A stretch of DNA of 64,000 nt, from positions 391,964,001 through 392,028,000 of the forward strand of contig OZ024741.1 in NCBI GenBank assembly GCA_964016885.1, given 5' to 3'. Below the pieces are notes generated by a model that had not been told where the DNA came from, made no database searches, and saw only the letters and a list, made by a program, of their open reading frames with translations. The stretch comes from Eledone cirrhosa. Taxonomy: Eukaryota. The translations under genes were made by a program, and so were the position numbers. Every line of letters begins with the position of its first letter. Positions within the stretch are counted from its first letter, which is position 1. This document shows, piece by piece, positions 11,051-60,593 of this stretch.

Positions 11051-11180
11051 TATATAGATATATATATGTTATATATTTCCGTAGAAAAGTAAAGGAAAGA
11101 AGAGTGTTCTATGTATAGTACAGAGCTATTTAATTATATAATAAACAACACAGTATAATTATATTCTGTTGTTTATTATA

Positions 11181-11228
<48 letters not shown>

Positions 11229-19208: not shown

Positions 19209-20376
19209 CTGTTGGTTTAAATATAATAGATACACTTTTGATTTCACTTCCCTTATTATGAACTTTACCTTTCATCCATTATTATTACTAAAATAATGCC
19301 GGTAATATACTAGGGAAATGCCATTGAAACCCTACTATCATTGACTTTGGTTTCCATTATTATTTACAATTTGTGATCTTGATGCCCAGCGTGCTTTTTT
19401 AACCCTTTTCATATCAACTCACCCTATGAAACAAAGCAATCCAAATTAAAGAGTTTTATTTAATCCTTCCAACATAATTTTATATAAGAACCATTTCTTA
19501 AGTTATGTTACAAATAATACCATCTTAATTATGAAATAATAATTTTAATAAACCTCTCCAAATTCTTCAATATTTATTTAATTTCAATTAATTGAAATAC
19601 AGTGGATTTCTAACAAAACAAAAAAGCCTTGTAATTAAAAACATATAACTTTGTTTTACATTCATTTTTATTTTTAACCTGTGTACCTGGATTAGAATAA
19701 GTACATATCTTTGCATGTTGTAAGAGACTAAAAGTGTCAGGAAGGCCTCCTGTTGTAAAACATTGCCTCAAAAAGTCTAGTCCAACCCATGCTAGCATGG
19801 AAAAGTGGCCATAAAAACAATGATGATATCAATATCCAATGTTAAGATGGTTAATTTGTAATTATTTCAAATCCTTGAAGAAGCCTTTACTACAGCTAGC
19901 TACCCAATGTAGGAGTGGAACCTGTTTTGTTTTCTCCTTCAGTAAGATTTGAACTCATGACGATATGGTCAGTAATCCATTGGTGAGTGAACAGCAAATC
20001 ATAGATGAGTTAAGAGGATTGCACTGGTACAGACATGTAATGTATATGGATGATGTTCAATGTGTGAAAAAGTGCTTGAAATTCCAAATGGAAGGAAGAT
20101 GTGGATGTCAAAAGAAAAGAGACAAGTGGATGCAATACTAGAGAGGATTTGTCTAACTATAGAGAGAAGTATAGCTCTTAAGTCAATGATCCTGTCCAGG
20201 ACAAGATTTGACAGCTACATATTTCTCTGTGTAACATAACACTGAATAACTGAGTGAAAAAGTGGGATCTAAAATATAGAATATCTTAAATGTTTAACTG
20301 AGAACTTAATATATTTTGCTAGTTTTCAGTCCCAACTCAATTAAAGTAGAATAATAGGTAAGAAATAACAATATAC

Positions 20377-20589
20377 CTTTGATGCTTTATCAGCTTTAAG
20401 TTGTCTAATTTTGTTCCCTTGCTCTGTAATCTTCTGATTTAATTCAACAACAGCTGGATCAGTGACAGCAGGTGTTTTGCCTTTATCACCATTTACTGGC
20501 AATGCATCTGGTTTCCAGACAGTTCCAGTCAGAGTTTTAAATTCACCCTTCAAGGTTAATAATATATTTACTTGAGCAGTTATTTCTTC
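20377..20589 (-). CDS. EPRS1: EPRS exon, WHEP3 helix 2 plus WHEP4 helix 1 (duplicate copy)
   Basis: EEITAQVNILLTLKGEFKTLTGTVWKPD...LNQKITEQGNKIRQLKADKASK; 213 nt, CAG/GTATAT. Confidence 0.92.
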
Positions 20590-20825
20590 CTGGAAAGAAA
20601 AAGAATTAGAAAAGATTTCTCTTAACAGTAAAGCAAACACTATAGCACCATAAATGTCTACTAAACTTCTTTATTTCATAAATGTTAGGGATTAATACGG
20701 CTAGGGTTTATCTCAAAGTTTTTCAGAATTAAGCAGAGGAGATACATTTTTCCTGGAGAGGATGATCTAGATATCTTTTGAAGAAAGGTTTAACACCTAT
20801 CTTTAGTTAGATAAACTAGGAATTA

Positions 20826-21980: not shown

Positions 21981-22350
21981 AAATTTTAATTTTTCCCTAA
22001 GTGAGGCAGTAACAAGTAAAATATTATGTACAGTGTTAGTTTATAGCATGGCTATCTCTATGCAATGAAACAATCAACAGAATTTATTAAAAAATAGTTG
22101 CTGTTAGATCAATATAAAAGATATTGTTTATGTTTTGTTCACTACATATCCAGTTTAGCTATTAAATATTGCCTAAAAAAGAGATCCCATGATGAGCATG
22201 AAATCTGTCATGAGGTCCAACAAGGCTAACTTCTGAATTAGAAAGGAAAGTGGCCTTAAATCACTTGCGTTGTGTTGTATCACTTTCATCTAGCAGCAAG
22301 TTGAGTCATTTTCATTTATTAAAATATAAATTGAATTATAAATCACTAAC

Positions 22351-22563
22351 CTTTGATGCTTTATCAGCTTTAAGTTGTCTAATTTTGTTCCCTTGCTCTG
22401 TAATCTTCTGATTTAATTCAACAACAGCTGGATCAGTGACAGCAGGTGTTTTGCCTTTATCACCATTTACTGGCAATGCATCTACTTTCCAGTCAGTTCC
22501 AGTCAGAGTTTTAAATTCACCTTTCAAGGTTAATAATATATTTACTTGAGCAGTTATTTCTTC
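22351..22563 (-). CDS. EPRS1: EPRS exon, WHEP2 helix 2 plus WHEP3 helix 1 (duplicate copy)
   Basis: EEITAQVNILLTLKGEFKTLTGTDWKVD...LNQKITEQGNKIRQLKADKASK; 213 nt, CAG/GTTAGT. Confidence 0.92.
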
Positions 22564-22745
22564 CTGGAAGGAAAAAGAATAAGGAAAAATTACTCTTAAC
22601 AATAAAGCAAACACTATAGAACTATAAATGTCTACTAAACTTCTTTATTTCATAAATGTTAGGGATTAATATGTACAACTGAATTCACCTAAAGTGACTT
22701 TCATTTGTAATAAATTGACAACATTTTTCGTTATAATTCATAATT

Positions 22746-53128: not shown

Positions 53129-53560
53129 CTGGCATAAATAAACACAAGCATTATACACATATGTAAGGAAGGGCATCCAGCTGTAGATTACCAAACCCAA
53201 AACAGAGTATATGAGCAAGATGTGGTAATCTGGGCTGTCTGGTCTTATGTTACACCCTGTCTAATCCATCTAAGCATGGAAAATAGACATTAAATGGTGA
53301 TAATGACGATGTTAAATACATATATGAGAAAAGTCAACAGAGAAAAAGAATAAAATACAATATATATTAGTTTAACACATGATATAGCAGGAAAAGAATT
53401 TTAATGTTTCAGACTTTAGTCCTTCATTGGAAGACAGAAAGAGAGGCAGAAGAAACAAAAAAATAAATGAGAACAAAAACAAGAAAGAAAGAAAGAAAAC
53501 GTTTTTCAGAAGGGATACACATGTAGTTAGCCATTTTTGAGGAAAAAAAAAATATATATA

Positions 53561-54042
53561 TCTAAACTATAATAAAGTAAGAAGCGTGGGACTGCGTATG
53601 GTTTATAATTTTATATCCCATTAGTAAAATAAGTTGGATTACTTTGAATAAATAATGAATGAATATTACATAATTTATCTACTAAATTTCGTGGCTGTTC
53701 ATTAAATATATTTTATTATTTATTTAAAGATTCACTTCTTTAAAATTTTCAAATGTCAACACTTCCGGTGGCAATCGCTTAAATAAACATATTAATTTTC
53801 TGTCACTAATTTTCTCCTAATGCAGTTTATATATAATATCGTCTTTTTTTAATGTGTTCATGGATTACGTTTCTGATTACAGAAGAGAGTGTAACACAGT
53901 CTTCGTTCAATTTCTGTGTATATTGTCAATTACAATGTTATTTGATGTATCATATCTACATGCATATATACTTGCGTATAATATCAATATGCACACTACA
54001 CATGCCAGCAGAAAACCACCCTTCGGGTGGTTTTTCTGCTAG
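53561..54042 (+). mobile_element. Non-autonomous Helitron
   Basis: A|TCTAAACTATAATAAAG start; 3' hairpin agcagaaaaccaccc-ttc-gggtggtttttctgct ending CTAG|T. Confidence 0.8.
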
Positions 54043-54147
54043 TATATATAAAATTCATAGGGATATATGTATATATTTAGACATATACGAGTGTGGCTAC
54101 CTTTCACGGTGTGGCTCAATGAAGCAAATAATTATTAATCAGAGCTA

Positions 54148-55256
54148 CCATATATACTCACGTATAGGTCGCCCCGGCAGATAGGTCACATACCCACTTT
54201 TCATTTAACAAATAGGCTATTTGCCATTGACTCGCAGATAGGTTGCACTGAAATTTGGGCCGTCAAACTAGTATTTTTTATGATAATTCAAACTAATAAT
54301 CTGTTAGCTTTCCATTACTTCACCGTTGCGATATATACTCCAAACCATGTTTTATTTATAAAATAAACATTAACGTCATCGAAATTTCGTCAATTCGAGA
54401 TTACTGCGAGATAAAGCCTTTAAGCGCGAAAATTAACTCTTAATATAGTGAAACAACTTGAAATAACATGTGTTTTTTAACGTATCAACATGGCTTCCCA
54501 AAGTAGCGAATACCGACTTTAAAGGTTTTACATGCGACGACATTAGAAATTAACAAGAAACACAAGATAATATTAGTGATTTATCTTCAAATGAATCAGA
54601 CGTATTTATTTCTGATGATAATAGTTACTTTGAAAGTGAAAACGAAGATCTGACGGACACCATTGAAAATATTACAGCAACGTGGTTGAAAGATACAACA
54701 CCAATACATGTTCACACCTACTTCCAAATTCTTCTGCATAACCAACCACCTTTAATTTGAAAACTGTTTGATAACTTTTTCTCTTACCGGAATTCATATT
54801 TCTCAGTGAATTATAAAAAAAATTTCAACTATCAACTTTTCTCACTTGCTACTTTTGAAAAGCAACGCCACATGCAATAATCTGTTTCCTGTTAAAGTAA
54901 ATACGTCACAATACGTGTTCATAGCAACACTAAGACAATGAAATCACATTTTAAATACCGGGTATGCATTTCTATGGATTTTAATGACGGATGGTTCGGT
55001 CAGATAGAAAAAAACGTAAACACTACGAAGTTTTAGTAAAAAATTTAAAATCAAGAAATATATGTATAAGAAGGTCGATATATGAAATTATTATGTTAAA
55101 TAATAAAAAATATTAAGTTATTTTTATAAATACCCATCGTTGATTAAGTCTATGAAAAATCATTGATCAGTCTGATGTCGATCGGATAGGTCACACCCCA
55201 AAAATTTATACTTATTTATCGTTAAAAAAGTGCAACCTATACACGAGTACATACGG
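54148..55256. mobile_element. Tc2/pogo-like non-autonomous DNA transposon
   Basis: TA flanks; TIRs ccatatatactcacgtataggtcgc / gcaacctatacacgagtacatacgg; subterminal gataggtcaca repeats. Confidence 0.8.
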
Positions 55257-55635
55257 TATATATAAAATTGCAAGTTTGAAGAATTATTAGATAAAATATA
55301 TCCAGTCATTTTCATTGAGCCACACCGTGAAAGGTAGCCACACTCATATATGTATCTGTGACTATGTCTAAATATATACATATATCCCTATGAATTTAAT
55401 ATATACTCCCGTTCGGTAGAGTAAAAATTTAGGCGGTATCTGGCTGCTCTTTCTAGCAGCCAGCCTACCTGCCACTTGGCCACCATTCACAACCTTCTTC
55501 TTTGACCACTAGCCATGTGATGATTCTTAGTCATTTTTTAATTCATTTCTGGCGGCGATCACTGTAGAAATTTTAGTCCAAACCTGAGGGTGTCTCTTGA
55601 TAAGCTCTAAGCCTCATGGATAATACCAGGATCGG

Positions 55636-57340
55636 ATCATCATCATCATCATCATCATCACCGTTTTACGTCCGTTCTTCCACGCTAGCATGGGTTAGAC
55701 GGGTTGTCCTGTTGTGGGCAGTGTCTGGTCGGCTGACCATGCCTTGCTCATACAGGAACTGATCTGGCTTGATTTCTACAGCTGGATGCCCTTCCTAACA
55801 CCAACCTCATTTACAGTGAGTGCTGGGTGCTTTTTCGTGGCGCCTACACGTCCACCTTACAGTGTGGGCTGGGTGCTTTTTTGCCGTGGCACCTCCACGA
55901 CCACCTTGCGGTGGGGGGGGGGCATATTGTTTATATGCTTCAGCATGTACCCATGGGAGGTCGGGTACCCTGTATTACTGCGTGACGCCAGAAGTCACGG
56001 TCGTGTGTCATTGACTTTGAGAGGTGTAGTTGGGTAAGGTCGGCTTTTATCACCTCATCCCAAGTCATCTTGGGTCTCCCCACTCCGCGGTTTCCATCAA
56101 CTTCTAGTGCTCTGCACCTTTTTATGCAGCTGTCATCCTTCATACGCATCACATGTCCATACCAGCGTAACCGCCTCTCCTGCACGCAGCATTTGATTCC
56201 TCTTATGCTCAGTCTCTCTCTCAATTCATTTATGCTTTGTCGTTCACGTATATTACTGTTACACATCCATCGGAGCATGCAGGCTTCGTTTCTCTCTAAT
56301 CTACGTAAGTCTTCCACCTTCAGCGCCCAGGTCTCACTACCATGCAACATCGCTGTTCGGATACACGCATCATACAGTCTGCCTTTCATTCTGAGGGAGA
56401 AGCCTTTTGCAGCTAGCAGTGGTAGTAGTTCCCTAAACTTCTTCCATCCCGTTCTTACCCTAGTTATTGTACTTTCTGAGCACCCACCTCCGTTGCTAAT
56501 TCGGTCACCTAGGTAGCAGAAGCTGTCTACTGTTTCTACAGGGCCCTCCCAGAGATTGGTGGTACTTGTTTCCTGTGGCTGTTTGCTTGCTGTTTCAGCA
56601 CAGCTGCTGCATGTGAATCCTACATTCTTAATTAAGCTTCCTGAGATCCCGCTACATCTCTTGTGTACCCATTGTTTGCATTTGGGGCAAAGAATGGAGT
56701 TCCTACCTACACCTTTCCTACATACTGAGCAAGGCCATTTCCCTGAGGGGATCTGGGTTCTGTTTTCTCGTCTACTTATAAGGACCTTAGTCTTTGTCAT
56801 GTTGACTTTGAGGCCCTTTCTCTCTAGTCCCTGCTTCCAGGTTTGGAATTTATTCTCTAGTTCTACCATAGATTCAGCTATGAGTGCGAGGTCATCAGCA
56901 TACAGGAGTTCCCATGGGCATCCGGTCTTAAACTCCTCCGTTATTGCCTGCAGGACTATGATGAACAGGAGAGGGCTAAGAACAGAGCCCTGGTGGACCC
57001 CAACCTGTACGCTAAATTCCTCGCTATACTCATTGCCAATCCTAACTTTGCTGACTGCTCCCCTATACATGGCTTGTACCGCTTTCACAAGCCATTCATC
57101 TACTCCTAGTTTTCTAAGAGCCCACCAGATTACTGCACGTGGAACTCTGTCAAAGGCTTTCTCAAGGTCGACAAATGCCAAGTAGAGTGGCTTACTTTTA
57201 GCTAGGTACTTTTCCTGTAATTGCCTCACAAGGAAGAGCGCATCAGTGGTGCCTTTCCCTGGAACAAACCCAAATTGCATCTCGTCTATATTCACCCGGT
57301 CCCTAATCAGCTGTGCTATAACTCTTTCTGTTACTTTCAT
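55636..57340 (-). mobile_element. 5'-truncated RTE-clade LINE with uninterrupted 466-aa RT/C-terminal ORF, 3' UTR and (TGA)n tail
   Basis: ORF 55940..57340: QFGF, FVDLEKAFD, GVHQGSVLSPLLF, LYADD, Cys-rich insert (WPCSVC...CPKC...HKRC...CSSC), YLG, RRLRWYGHVMRM, GRPKMTW. Confidence 0.95.
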
Positions 57341-57731
57341 GCATATAACTCTGTGCTATAACTCTTTCTGTTACTCCACAAAGTGCGAGCGAAACTGTCG
57401 ACAGTCGGAACTAGAGGAATTTTGGTAAAGTTTATATGCATTTTTTCTTCTAACTTATATTTTAGACTTAGCTCCGTTTAATTGATTATTTGTCTAGTTA
57501 ATTTCTACGGACTAAGAGGAAAGACTAAATAAATTTTATCTGACTGTTCCGCGTGGAAAATAGTCTGTATCATTTATCTATTATTTCTTCAAAGTTACAT
57601 TTTAAACTTATAGCCCCATTTAAATGATTATTTATCTAGTTGATTTCTACAGTCTAGGGTGAAGAAAGACTGGATATATTTTATCTAATAATTCTTCAAA
57701 CTTGCAATTTTATATATATATATATATATTT

Positions 57732-57794
57732 ACACCCACTGATGAGCAAAGAATAGGTAATTCTGAAACAGCCTACCAAAATCTGTCTGGGTGT
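57732..57794 (+). ncRNA. Type I hammerhead ribozyme motif
   Basis: ACACCCA-CUGAUGA-GCAA-AGAAU-AGGUA-AUUCU-GAAA-CAG-CCUACCAAAAU-CUG-UC/UGGGUGU. Perfect 7-bp stem I, GUC triplet, 4-nt insertion at the base of stem II; follows a (TA)n run. Confidence 0.72.
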
Positions 57795-58080
57795 CAGGCA
57801 GTTGCCCAATATTGGTTTGTAATTCTTTTCTTGATTTATGGTTTTAAATTGAGTCTGGTAAACCTTATTGTTAATAGTTAGTATTTTTTTCACCCTAGCG
57901 AATCTGGTCTCTTACGATTTGAACACATATATGTTTATATCTGTGTTTATCTCTTTTTTATATTCAATTATATTACACGGCTCAGAAAAACCTCTTTCTT
58001 TGAGCTATTTAATTGTAAGAGACTATTTTGAGTTTCTAACTCAATATATACCTTTGATATATTTGCATAATAAACAACAC

Positions 58081-58171
58081 AATATAATTATTTCATTACC
58101 AAAGGTTTCAAGAAACTAGATGATTCTTGCAAGGAACATCCAGTTCGTTCGTCAGACAAAATAATTATATT
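58081..58171 (-). ncRNA. Type I hammerhead ribozyme motif (sense to EPRS pre-mRNA)
   Basis: Minus strand: AAUAUAAUUAUUUUGU-CUGACGA-[ACGAACUGGAUG...CAUCUAGUUUCUU]-GAAA-CC-UUU-GG-UA/AUGAAAUAAUUAUAUU. 16-bp stem I (two G-U), long stem II, 3-bp stem III, GUA triplet, predicted cut between 58097 and 58096. Confidence 0.82.
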
Positions 58172-58175
58172 TTGG

Positions 58176-58260
58176 ATAATTATTATTTCTGAAGAATGAA
58201 CTGGATGTTCCTTGCAAGAATCATCTAGTTTCTTGAAATCTTCGGTAATGAAATAATTAT
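58176..58260 (+). ncRNA. Mirror-image type I hammerhead motif (weakened stem I)
   Basis: CUGAAGA at 58189-58195, the same stem II, GAAA at 58235-58238, UC-UUC-GG-UA; stem I is mismatched next to the core. Confidence 0.62.
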
Positions 58261-58856
58261 ATTGTGTTGTTTATTATGTAATTTAATAGCTCTGTACAAT
58301 ACATAGAACACTCTTTTTTATTATGGCATCAGCATTAGAGAGGTAGTTATGTGTTTGGCAAAACTGAAATGCTCTCTCTACCCTACACTTTCTCCATTCA
58401 ACTGCCAGCAGCTACCAGAACTAAAGAAATCATATTCATTTTTGTTTGGAGAAAAATAGTATTTTTTATCCTAATATGCAGTAGTTTGCTAAACCACCTT
58501 AAGCATGATACTAGTGTTGTTTCCAAGCATCTCCAACACAATGGTCAAATGAATAAGCTGTTGGCCTAGTGACTGAAAAGCTGAGATCGTATTCCAGCTT
58601 TAACCAGCTGAACAGATAAGAATAGAGAATAAATTTGATGAAGTTCTAAATTTACAAGAAATTAAACAAATACTTTAGTAGCTTACAGTACCAACATCAA
58701 ATCTTAAAGCCTCCTTCCAAGTATTCTCAATCCCCTTTCTCAGGTTATTTGAGAGAGATAAATCTACAATCTTTTTGCATCAAATAATAAAGGTTAATAA
58801 TTATTTCTTTTTATTTGCCACAAGGGCAATAAGGTTAATAATAGCATAAAACTTAC

Positions 58857-58999
58857 TTCTTTTTCCCTTTCTTTGAGTTTAAGAGAAGGGTTACTAAGTA
58901 CTGATTGGAAAATTGGTTGTGAAGTCAAAAAATTATAGAAGCGTAATGCATTTTTGGGTGTTGTTGATTTCTGGATCATTTCTTGCCATTTTCTGTTGA
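58857..58999 (-). CDS. EPRS1: EPRS exon, end of GST-like domain
   Basis: NRKWQEMIQKSTTPKNALRFYNFLTSQPIFQSVLSNPSLKLKEREKE; CAG/GTAAGT; phase fits both neighbours. Confidence 0.88.
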
Positions 59000-60593
59000 C
59001 TGTAAAAGATTTTATTTAAAAAAAATCAATTATGAAATAATTTCACGAGAAAAAACATGGTTAGAATGCTGGACTACAAATACAACAGGTCACAATTGTG
59101 CTGCTGTTTAACCAAAGATCAGCTCTGATCAAGCAGACCTTTGGTTAAAGGCGTTCCAGCTGTGACTATTTCATCTTTTCAGAAACTGTATATCTAGGAC
59201 TACATTATTGAAGGTGCTCCTCTATTTTTAAGATAGTAGAGTGTGAGTTGGTTATTGTTTCTAACAGACTTAGCAATCACAAAGCAGCTCTTTTATTGAC
59301 TTAAGTGGCATTGTGTTATGTCCTTAAGAAAGCTTATTTCAATTGCTTCAAAGAGGAGTTATTTGCACTTCAGAGTGGTATGGGTGAAGAGAAACATTCA
59401 GCCACAATAATTAACGCAAATAACTCCTAAAATGTATATTGATATGTGGTTAAACCCCAATGGGATGATCAGGGAGTATTTTGTTCACATAACTGATCTA
59501 ATTGTAATCAAAAGAGGCTATACTTAACACAATTATGTAAAAAAAAAAGAAGCATATTTAGATTCAATATGTTTGTAATCTTATGCAATCTTTGATGTCT
59601 TTTCCATATGATTCAGAAACTGTAAAATCTCTTTTTTTTTGTCAACTGTCAATGATATTCACGCTCTCTTCATAAACAAAATCAGAGAGTGAATGAAAAC
59701 ATCACTGATTTTGACATGTCAGTTGTCCTCATATGCTAAAAATTATCTTAACATGACTAACCAAAATGAAAACAGTGGACTGATTAGACTGCAGTACTTT
59801 TGATAACTGTAAATAAAAGATGTGATACAATGTCTTTACATGTTCTTCAGTAATTTGAATTCACTTGTAATCAATGTAAACAAAAGACAAATGTTAACAC
59901 CATTAATGTTCTCAAATTCGGGCTACACATTGTATGGCTAATTAAATAATCATAGGACATTGAGATCTTGTTCAGATAAGGTTTGAATGTAAATGACTTG
60001 ATATAAATAGTGTATAACAGGAATAGATATCTTCTGAGATGCCTGCTTCTATAATTCTATTGGATACAGTTAATATAAAGAATGGTGTGCTCAGGCACAG
60101 AGATGTTATAAAATAGAGTGAAGACCCTTAAAGACGAAAAAAGAAGTTGCCATCAGCTACTGCTTTTTATCATAAGTTTTGTAAAATAAAAATATAAAAT
60201 AATATAATACAGTCAAGCCAATTGCTGACAACCATTCAAGAAATTAACCCTATATTGTTTCTGTAAAACAGTTTGTGATTGAATGGAGACAATATAGGGT
60301 AGAGAGGACACTTCAGATTCGCTAAGTACATGACAACTTTTCTACTACTTGTGCAATGGTAAATTACATCCAGTACACGCTGTGCTTGTACTGGTGCGAT
60401 AATAAAATGCACCACATACACTCTGTAAAGTTGATGGCATTAGGAAGAGCATCAAACCATGAAACCAAGTCATATATGGGATGTATGAACAAGACATGAC
60501 TTTCCAAACAGTTTAGCCTTGAACCGTGATGACCCATCTAACTCATGATAACATAGAGATCAGATGAAAAATGATGATAATAAAAATACTTAC

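Follow-up and report, generated by a model that had tools for sequence, protein, structure and literature searches.

The hammerhead-bearing palindrome in an intron of the Eledone cirrhosa EPRS gene is very probably a 5'-truncated insertion from a Penelope-like element (PLE) family, likely a Hydra-clade one, in which a terminal repeat (pLTR) that bears the tail lies head to head with an inverted copy that has no tail; the presence of ribozymes of opposite polarity is likely a by-product of integration. The palindrome is one copy of a dispersed repeat family and is not singular to EPRS. The gene occupies the minus strand of the window (the whole 64,000-nt stretch of DNA that was analysed), as indicated by GluRS, WHEP and ProRS matches, and the features that concern the insertion are as follows.

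53129..58856, minus strand: EPRS host intron, 5,728 nt, running from 58856 to 53129, with bounds taken from splice signals
58051..58062, no strand: insertion site, the TA-rich end of an adjoining repeat
58063..58168, minus strand: inverted tail-less pLTR copy, with a type I hammerhead motif of intact core, sense to the EPRS pre-mRNA
58169..58175, no strand: spacer at the head-to-head junction, 7 nt
58176..58281, plus strand: element-sense pLTR copy, with a decayed hammerhead motif
58282..58319 (end approximate), plus strand: one-sided element tail, incomplete here, approximately 38 of approximately 65 nt
11062..11185, minus strand: second copy of the palindrome family in EPRS, with a full tail, a short head-to-head stub and (TA)n on both sides

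The palindrome sits 575-793 nt downstream of the 5' splice site of the EPRS intron. Its two arms (58063-58168 and 58176-58281), each of 106 nt, are 93% complementary and, together with the 7-nt spacer, amount to 219 bp, with a folding energy of -140.2 kcal/mol (z = -26); the sequence-only reading had described 213 bp, and the inverted repeat is real and slightly longer. The spacer is a shortened version of a longer centre present in other copies, that of copy L024 being perfectly palindromic. In two of three runs, all from one sample that is possibly the assembly's own, the centre was spanned by a 107-nt contig that showed no difference. Because the tail lies on the plus side of the window, the element's own sense strand is the plus strand and runs antisense to EPRS, which makes the intact minus arm the extra inverted copy. 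No target-site duplication could be identified at the palindrome (58051-58062), and a ribozyme core is absent from the second EPRS copy (11062-11185).

The surroundings of the palindrome contain further repeats. A different high-copy repeat adjoins it on the plus strand (57735-58056; best 40 of 3,503 candidates scored); this repeat opens with a hammerhead-like motif of its own (core at 57739), lacks approximately 15 nt of stem II relative to its other copies, finishes in (TA)n, forms short inversions and is likely another Penelope-like terminal repeat. Where the element tail breaks off, an inverted repeat begins, the 85-nt halves of which (58317-58401 and 60279-60363; 74% complementary, 1,877 nt apart) bracket the EPRS exon ending at 58857. 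The same EPRS intron contains, on the minus strand, a LINE reverse transcriptase open frame of 471 aa with a PHD-like finger (55943-57355), and elsewhere on that strand two nearly identical WHEP-domain EPRS exons (20344-20670 and 22339-22644) constitute a tandem exon duplication.

The sequence-only reading had proposed a search of the genome for further copies, and a dispersed family was recovered. In the 3.0-Gb genome, 2,283 candidates were obtained, the best 40 of which were scored, and two arms of at least 85 columns were present in 17 of the 21 distinct places examined. The anatomy of the copies follows a common order, namely (TA)n, an inverted arm with a constant end base, a variable centre, a sense arm and a tail of approximately 65 nt that, in full-length copies, ends in (CA)n/(TA)n. 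An exact 27-mer from the tail occurs 278 times in the genome (control, 0); 100 of these matches were listed and one duplicate was removed, which left a tail-anchored set of 99 copies. A head-to-head inverted arm was found within 400 nt in 48 of the 99, and no inverted arm was detected in the remaining 51. The tail end is constant, while the 5' ends of the 99 copies reach from +39 back to -110 or further, counted from the cut site, a pattern of fixed 3' end and variable 5' truncation. The tail is one-sided in 29 of 33 other head-to-head elements and undetected in four, the sole two-sided exception being L297, in which it follows both arms (1 of 48). Insertion flanks consist of (TA)n/(CA)n, as judged by eye, the palindromic part varies from 86 to 233 bp, and no target-site duplication was seen; most copies have been reduced to under 250 bp. 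Tandem units of the same polarity were absent from the loci examined for this family; the palindrome consists of one unit and its mirror image.

Both arms span the ribozyme in only 6 of the 99 tail-anchored copies, with two strict cores in three, and 42 of the 48 inverted copies are without at least one full ribozyme. Strict cores survive in 15 of the 24 tail arms and 7 of the 16 inverted arms that span the ribozyme, and in 39 of 81 own-family arms when these are anchored on stem III alone, truncated arms included. Copies decay after insertion. Additional hammerhead-like families with a palindromic (TA-type) stem III were noticed at L076:933-1531, L079 downstream of 1750 and L148 upstream of 1430; they adjoin or separate copies of the palindrome family, and one of them forms a head-to-head palindrome of its own.

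The CUGANGA, GAAA and UH core is present in type I order in both arms, which bears out the proposal of the sequence-only reading that each arm is a type I hammerhead, the minus copy intact, with a 16-bp stem I and sense to the EPRS pre-mRNA, and the plus copy weakened in stem I. In the minus copy (CUGACGA; C3 at 58155, G12 at 58109, predicted cut at 58097/58096) the core is kept, stem III is ACC/GGU with a 3-nt loop and stem I consists of 16 contiguous pairs. This copy was the sole match in a motif scan of the window, with 0 matches in 20 Markov-shuffled windows, and in the isolated arm the hammerhead fold equals the minimum energy, with an ensemble P of about 0.1. In the plus copy (CUGAAGA; C3 at 58189, G12 at 58235, predicted cut at 58247/58248) pairs 2 and 4 of stem I, adjoining the core, are disrupted and stem III carries one change; the predicted probability of the hammerhead fold is near 1e-11, and the plus-strand hammerhead is predicted to be dead. 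The EPRS-sense arm has no disruptive change and the other arm has three, while the arm-to-arm difference in minority bases (4 versus 2) is too small for testing. The G10.1-C11.1 pair does not close stem II at the core, where an A-U pair and then a C-U or U-U mismatch precede G-C, and each of the three families examined, the palindrome family and two sisters, has a stem II with a non-canonical base. The Rfam check that had also been proposed returned no hammerhead: in the window every family stayed below its gathering score, the 20 weak matches obtained in E-value mode for 57800-58600 included no hammerhead, and the matches near the palindrome were generic hairpins (miRNA-type) only, below threshold. 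A dimer model was considered and rejected, since loop 3 is not palindromic and co-folding of the two arms gave no extended stem III, the latter being weak evidence either way.

Conservation of the fold was assessed in 30 arms chosen for an intact core out of 136 collected. Cells at stem positions were paired in 85.5% of cases, compared with 32-50% in slid controls, and four of nine stem I pairs vary on both sides across families. Two-sided changes affected 62 cells, where shuffles gave 23.8; neither of two pair-count measures in the same 30 arms exceeded its shuffled level. The hammerhead fold is under selection in the mobile lineages. The conservation of CUGANGA, GAAA and NUH that the sequence-only reading had anticipated holds for core and stems across related families; among individual copies, cores decay.

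The relationship to PLEs, which had been raised from the sequence of the window, is established by linkage of the terminal repeat to an RT-EN open reading frame. An 18-letter pattern covering stem III and the cut site has 7,373 exact genomic occurrences, including those in sister families (control, 0), and this search exposed two sister families with a different stem II. At the sister locus L211, an inverted pLTR with tail is followed by a pLTR, an ORF and another pLTR.

L211:2307-4361: 685-aa sister ORF

This ORF contains RWK, DKT, YRDD and CxCx5C motifs, a degenerate GIY-YIG and a CxxC, with no CCHH-like motif. The lineage is likely the Hydra clade on the basis of these motifs, because they match the signature given in the relevant passages of PMC8557442 (RWK, DKT, a CxCx5C linker and no CCHH), and a likeness of the RT to a passage of the Hydra-1_Obim protein in the supplement of that paper was noted by eye. 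A Pfam search of the 685-aa ORF gave no significant family. Partial tandems of the order pLTR-ORF-pLTR occur in the sister family (L178/L179 and L211), with units of 2,549 and 3,645 bp, compared with less than 3 kb for the Hydra clade. For the window's own family, neither an intact ORF nor a partial tandem was found. At L220, a broken RT-EN ORF is followed by a simple-repeat UTR and then by a palindrome-family pLTR with tail, the ORF sharing 59-72% identity with the sister in RT and 43% over linker and endonuclease; at L213, an inverted palindrome-family pLTR abuts an EN fragment. Both of these own-family ORFs are broken, with DKT and CxCx5C altered. A window-type pLTR lies within 1.5 kb in 11 of 30 loci matching the EN/UTR junction of L220, seven of them with ORF matches as well, and no pLTR is present in the 1.5-kb flank of the other 19. 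Among the own-family tails listed and checked for run-on into an ORF, microsatellite or unrelated DNA follows.

The sister endonuclease, used as a query, yielded 150 matches of 84-100% identity, all of them near the query. A Pfam GIY-YIG search of the genome gave 150 matches and was set aside: the 30 loci examined belonged to different PLE-type endonucleases, whose DNA resembled the palindrome element in microsatellites only. Of 8,000 candidates that were scored for the 685-aa ORF, 1,309 are relatives, many of them located on contigs of 2.2-3.2 kb, and the endonuclease part of L211 has 48,774 genomic candidates, which suggests a very large expansion. A U4-to-C variant of the core, CCGACGA, is present in 10 of 22 sister-family hammerheads (L154, L162, L168, L175, L178, L179, L186, L194, L206 and L212) and is fixed in one sister sublineage that includes coding copies.

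The two arms of an element are more similar to each other than to the arms of other elements (distance 0.119 within versus 0.162 between elements; 17 elements, 0 of 5,000 permutations). Minority bases are common to both arms in 54 of 165 cases, compared with 17.6 expected, and six private variants are shared by partner arms; an arm lies closest to its own partner in only 6 of the 17 elements. This similarity fits an insertion in which a single template gave rise to both arms, or conversion between them at a later time. Several centres coincide with short self-complementary words or with stems I and II (by eye), which fits the self-priming proposed for inverted Penelope copies in the pertinent section of PMC3846280. 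Simple fold-back cannot account for all junctions, because only 12 of 48 are near-symmetric, and the asymmetric ones would also accommodate priming of both strands, or deletions at a later stage. The Anolis PLE protein, as described in part of PMC11167929, cleaves and extends both strands, with two start sites defining the tail. In the proposed route, the element protein would nick a TA run and reverse-transcribe from the tail end. The mirror arm would derive from that template too, through fold-back self-priming of the cDNA (at short palindromes or at stems of the ribozyme itself) or through a second round of priming on the opposite strand, with microhomology at the join. A transcript through the locus is predicted to form a hairpin of approximately 105 bp that blocks the hammerhead fold, so that the insert would act as inert intronic double-stranded RNA and decay neutrally.

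The 5' ends of the copies offer a hint of in vivo cleavage. Among the 45 tail-arm 5' ends located between -58 and +12, 11 lie in the interval -3..+2 around the predicted cut (p = 0.001 versus uniform, the width of this interval having been chosen after an earlier look at the data), compared with 1 of 26 inverted-arm ends; a pile of 5' ends near -70, where two of five references end, was left out. The modes of the cluster are at -1 and -2 and not at 0, and some cases are internal deletions. The cluster was rejected as proof of cleavage: in a palindrome, both strands of stem I are present as direct repeats, so that deletion or fold-back yields the same ends. For the Anolis element, the corresponding passages of PMC11167929 report that cleavage is dispensable in vitro and that no RNA-seq ends occur at the site.

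The long hairpin is predicted to sequester the ribozyme, as the sequence-only reading had supposed. Folding predictions favour the hairpin over the hammerhead, with a margin of 82 kcal/mol for the minus strand, 93 kcal/mol for the plus strand and 75-82 kcal/mol for nascent minus-strand RNA, and with differences of 75-93 kcal/mol sequestration is plausible. A purpose-built device that silences itself and that an essential gene can therefore tolerate is not supported: the head-to-head form is an ordinary insertion product (48 of 99 copies), most inverted copies are without one or both ribozymes, cores decay and the arrangement has been published for PLEs. A weaker version, in which the geometry is an insertion by-product but intact sense ribozymes in introns persist mainly when locked in a palindrome, with editing or a helicase as possible keys, is rated improbable. 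The 75-82 kcal/mol by which the hammerhead fold is less favourable in nascent or whole minus-strand RNA, the ability of the isolated minus arm to attain that fold at minimum energy (P about 0.1) and the undamaged state of the EPRS-sense arm, opposite a partner with three disruptive changes, are all in its favour, as is the under-representation of retrozymes in Xenopus introns, which nevertheless hold 42-44% of copies there according to the relevant part of bioRxiv 10.64898/2026.07.22.740005. It is opposed by the family-wide occurrence of the arrangement, by the 42 of 48 inverted copies without at least one full ribozyme and by the limited survival of strict cores among ribozyme-spanning arms, 15 of 24 on the tail side and 7 of 16 on the inverted side. 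Sections of the literature also speak against it, since metazoan PLE hammerheads are described as nearly inactive as monomers (PMC4209133), the Anolis PLE hammerhead required the element's protein (PMC11167929) and cleavage by an intronic hammerhead did not block splicing (PMC2995048, citing Dye 2006 and Fong 2009). Little silencing would be needed if, as reported, such cleavage leaves splicing unblocked. Its fullest form, in which head-to-head insertion disperses double-strand-gated ribozymes, the intact sense ones owe their survival in introns such as that of EPRS to being locked, and cleavage of the pre-mRNA could be set free by A-to-I editing of the AU-rich hairpin, is equally doubtful; release by editing or a helicase is not supported, and nothing shows selection for, or regulation of, hairpin sequestration.

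A MITE or another DNA-transposon palindrome with an incidental likeness to a hammerhead would also be short, AT-rich, palindromic, abundant and sited in TA runs. The ends of the present element are unequal, the tail being one-sided, its centre differs from copy to copy, its palindromic part (86-233 bp) is not uniform and is accompanied by no visible target-site duplication, 51 of 99 copies show no inverted arm, long copies reach into the RT-EN ORF and stem I covaries across families, all of which make such an origin very unlikely. Hammerhead motifs on both strands might equally recall an integrated copy of a retrozyme-like or viroid-like RNA circle that self-cleaves in both polarities, an analogy that had been drawn from the sequence of the window. 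Against it, the second ribozyme is no more than the first one in reverse complement, the junctions vary and the loci examined contain no tandem units of the same polarity, and this origin is considered the most improbable, close to negligible. The preferred interpretation remains a 5'-truncated PLE insertion with an inverted second copy.

Opposite-strand hammerhead pairs and head-to-head inverted PLE copies have already been published, and this family was not found described. Passages of PMC4209133 ascribe opposite-strand hammerhead pairs, 100-700 bp apart, to truncated PLEs, the head-to-head arrangement is given as the most frequent in PMC3846280, and entries in the supplement of PMC8557442 include Penelope-13_HM, which has an inverted copy at its 5' end and hammerheads on each of the two strands, as well as a Hydra family from a cephalopod, whose hammerhead is different. 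The literature covered, in part and including PMC13282606, contained no description of this particular family.

As far as the cited portions of these sources go, the closest relatives are the Hydra-clade PLEs of Craig et al. 2021 (PMC8557442; Hydra-1_Obim and Penelope-13_HM), with which the lineage shares an ORF with a C-terminal endonuclease, RWK, DKT and CxCx5C without CCHH, a pLTR hammerhead with a stem III of 3-4 bp, (TA)n targets and a tail at one end, and, in the case of Penelope-13_HM, a 5'-truncated inverted copy that puts hammerheads on both strands. The hammerhead of Hydra-1_Obim differs from that of the palindrome family, in which stem II is long and mismatched close to its base and stem I has up to 16 pairs; the family's tail is approximately 65 nt rather than 30-40, its UTR is long and rich in simple repeats, and most of its copies are shorter than 250 bp. 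The minimal metazoan PLE hammerheads (Cervera and de la Pena 2014, PMC4209133) are likewise of type I, with a short stem III, an enlarged stem II, an extra nucleotide after A9, many dispersed truncated copies and opposite-strand pairs, whereas in the palindrome family the 3-nt loop 3 is not palindromic, stem I is far longer than 4-5 bp and G10.1-C11.1 is displaced by two nucleotides on each side. The inverted pLTRs of Adineta vaga Penelope (Arkhipova et al. 2013, PMC3846280) are also head to head and shorter than the direct one, with an optional tail, junction palindromes and a self-priming proposal; they often have target-site duplications of 8-10 bp, and none is recognisable in the palindrome family because its targets are microsatellites. 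The non-LTR retrozymes (bioRxiv 10.64898/2026.07.22.740005) are similarly non-coding, PLE-derived and equipped with a type I hammerhead, but consist of same-polarity tandem repeats, in contrast to one unit and its mirror image.

The palindrome belongs to ordinary transposon biology, that of a hammerhead-bearing Penelope-like lineage that likely falls in the Hydra clade and is represented by thousands of copies in the genome. Its many short natural insertions provide material for studying how PLEs make inverted copies and whether PLE hammerheads cut in vivo. If true, the reading of such insertions as gated ribozymes would connect the geometry of transposons with RNA editing and with the integrity of introns in a new way.
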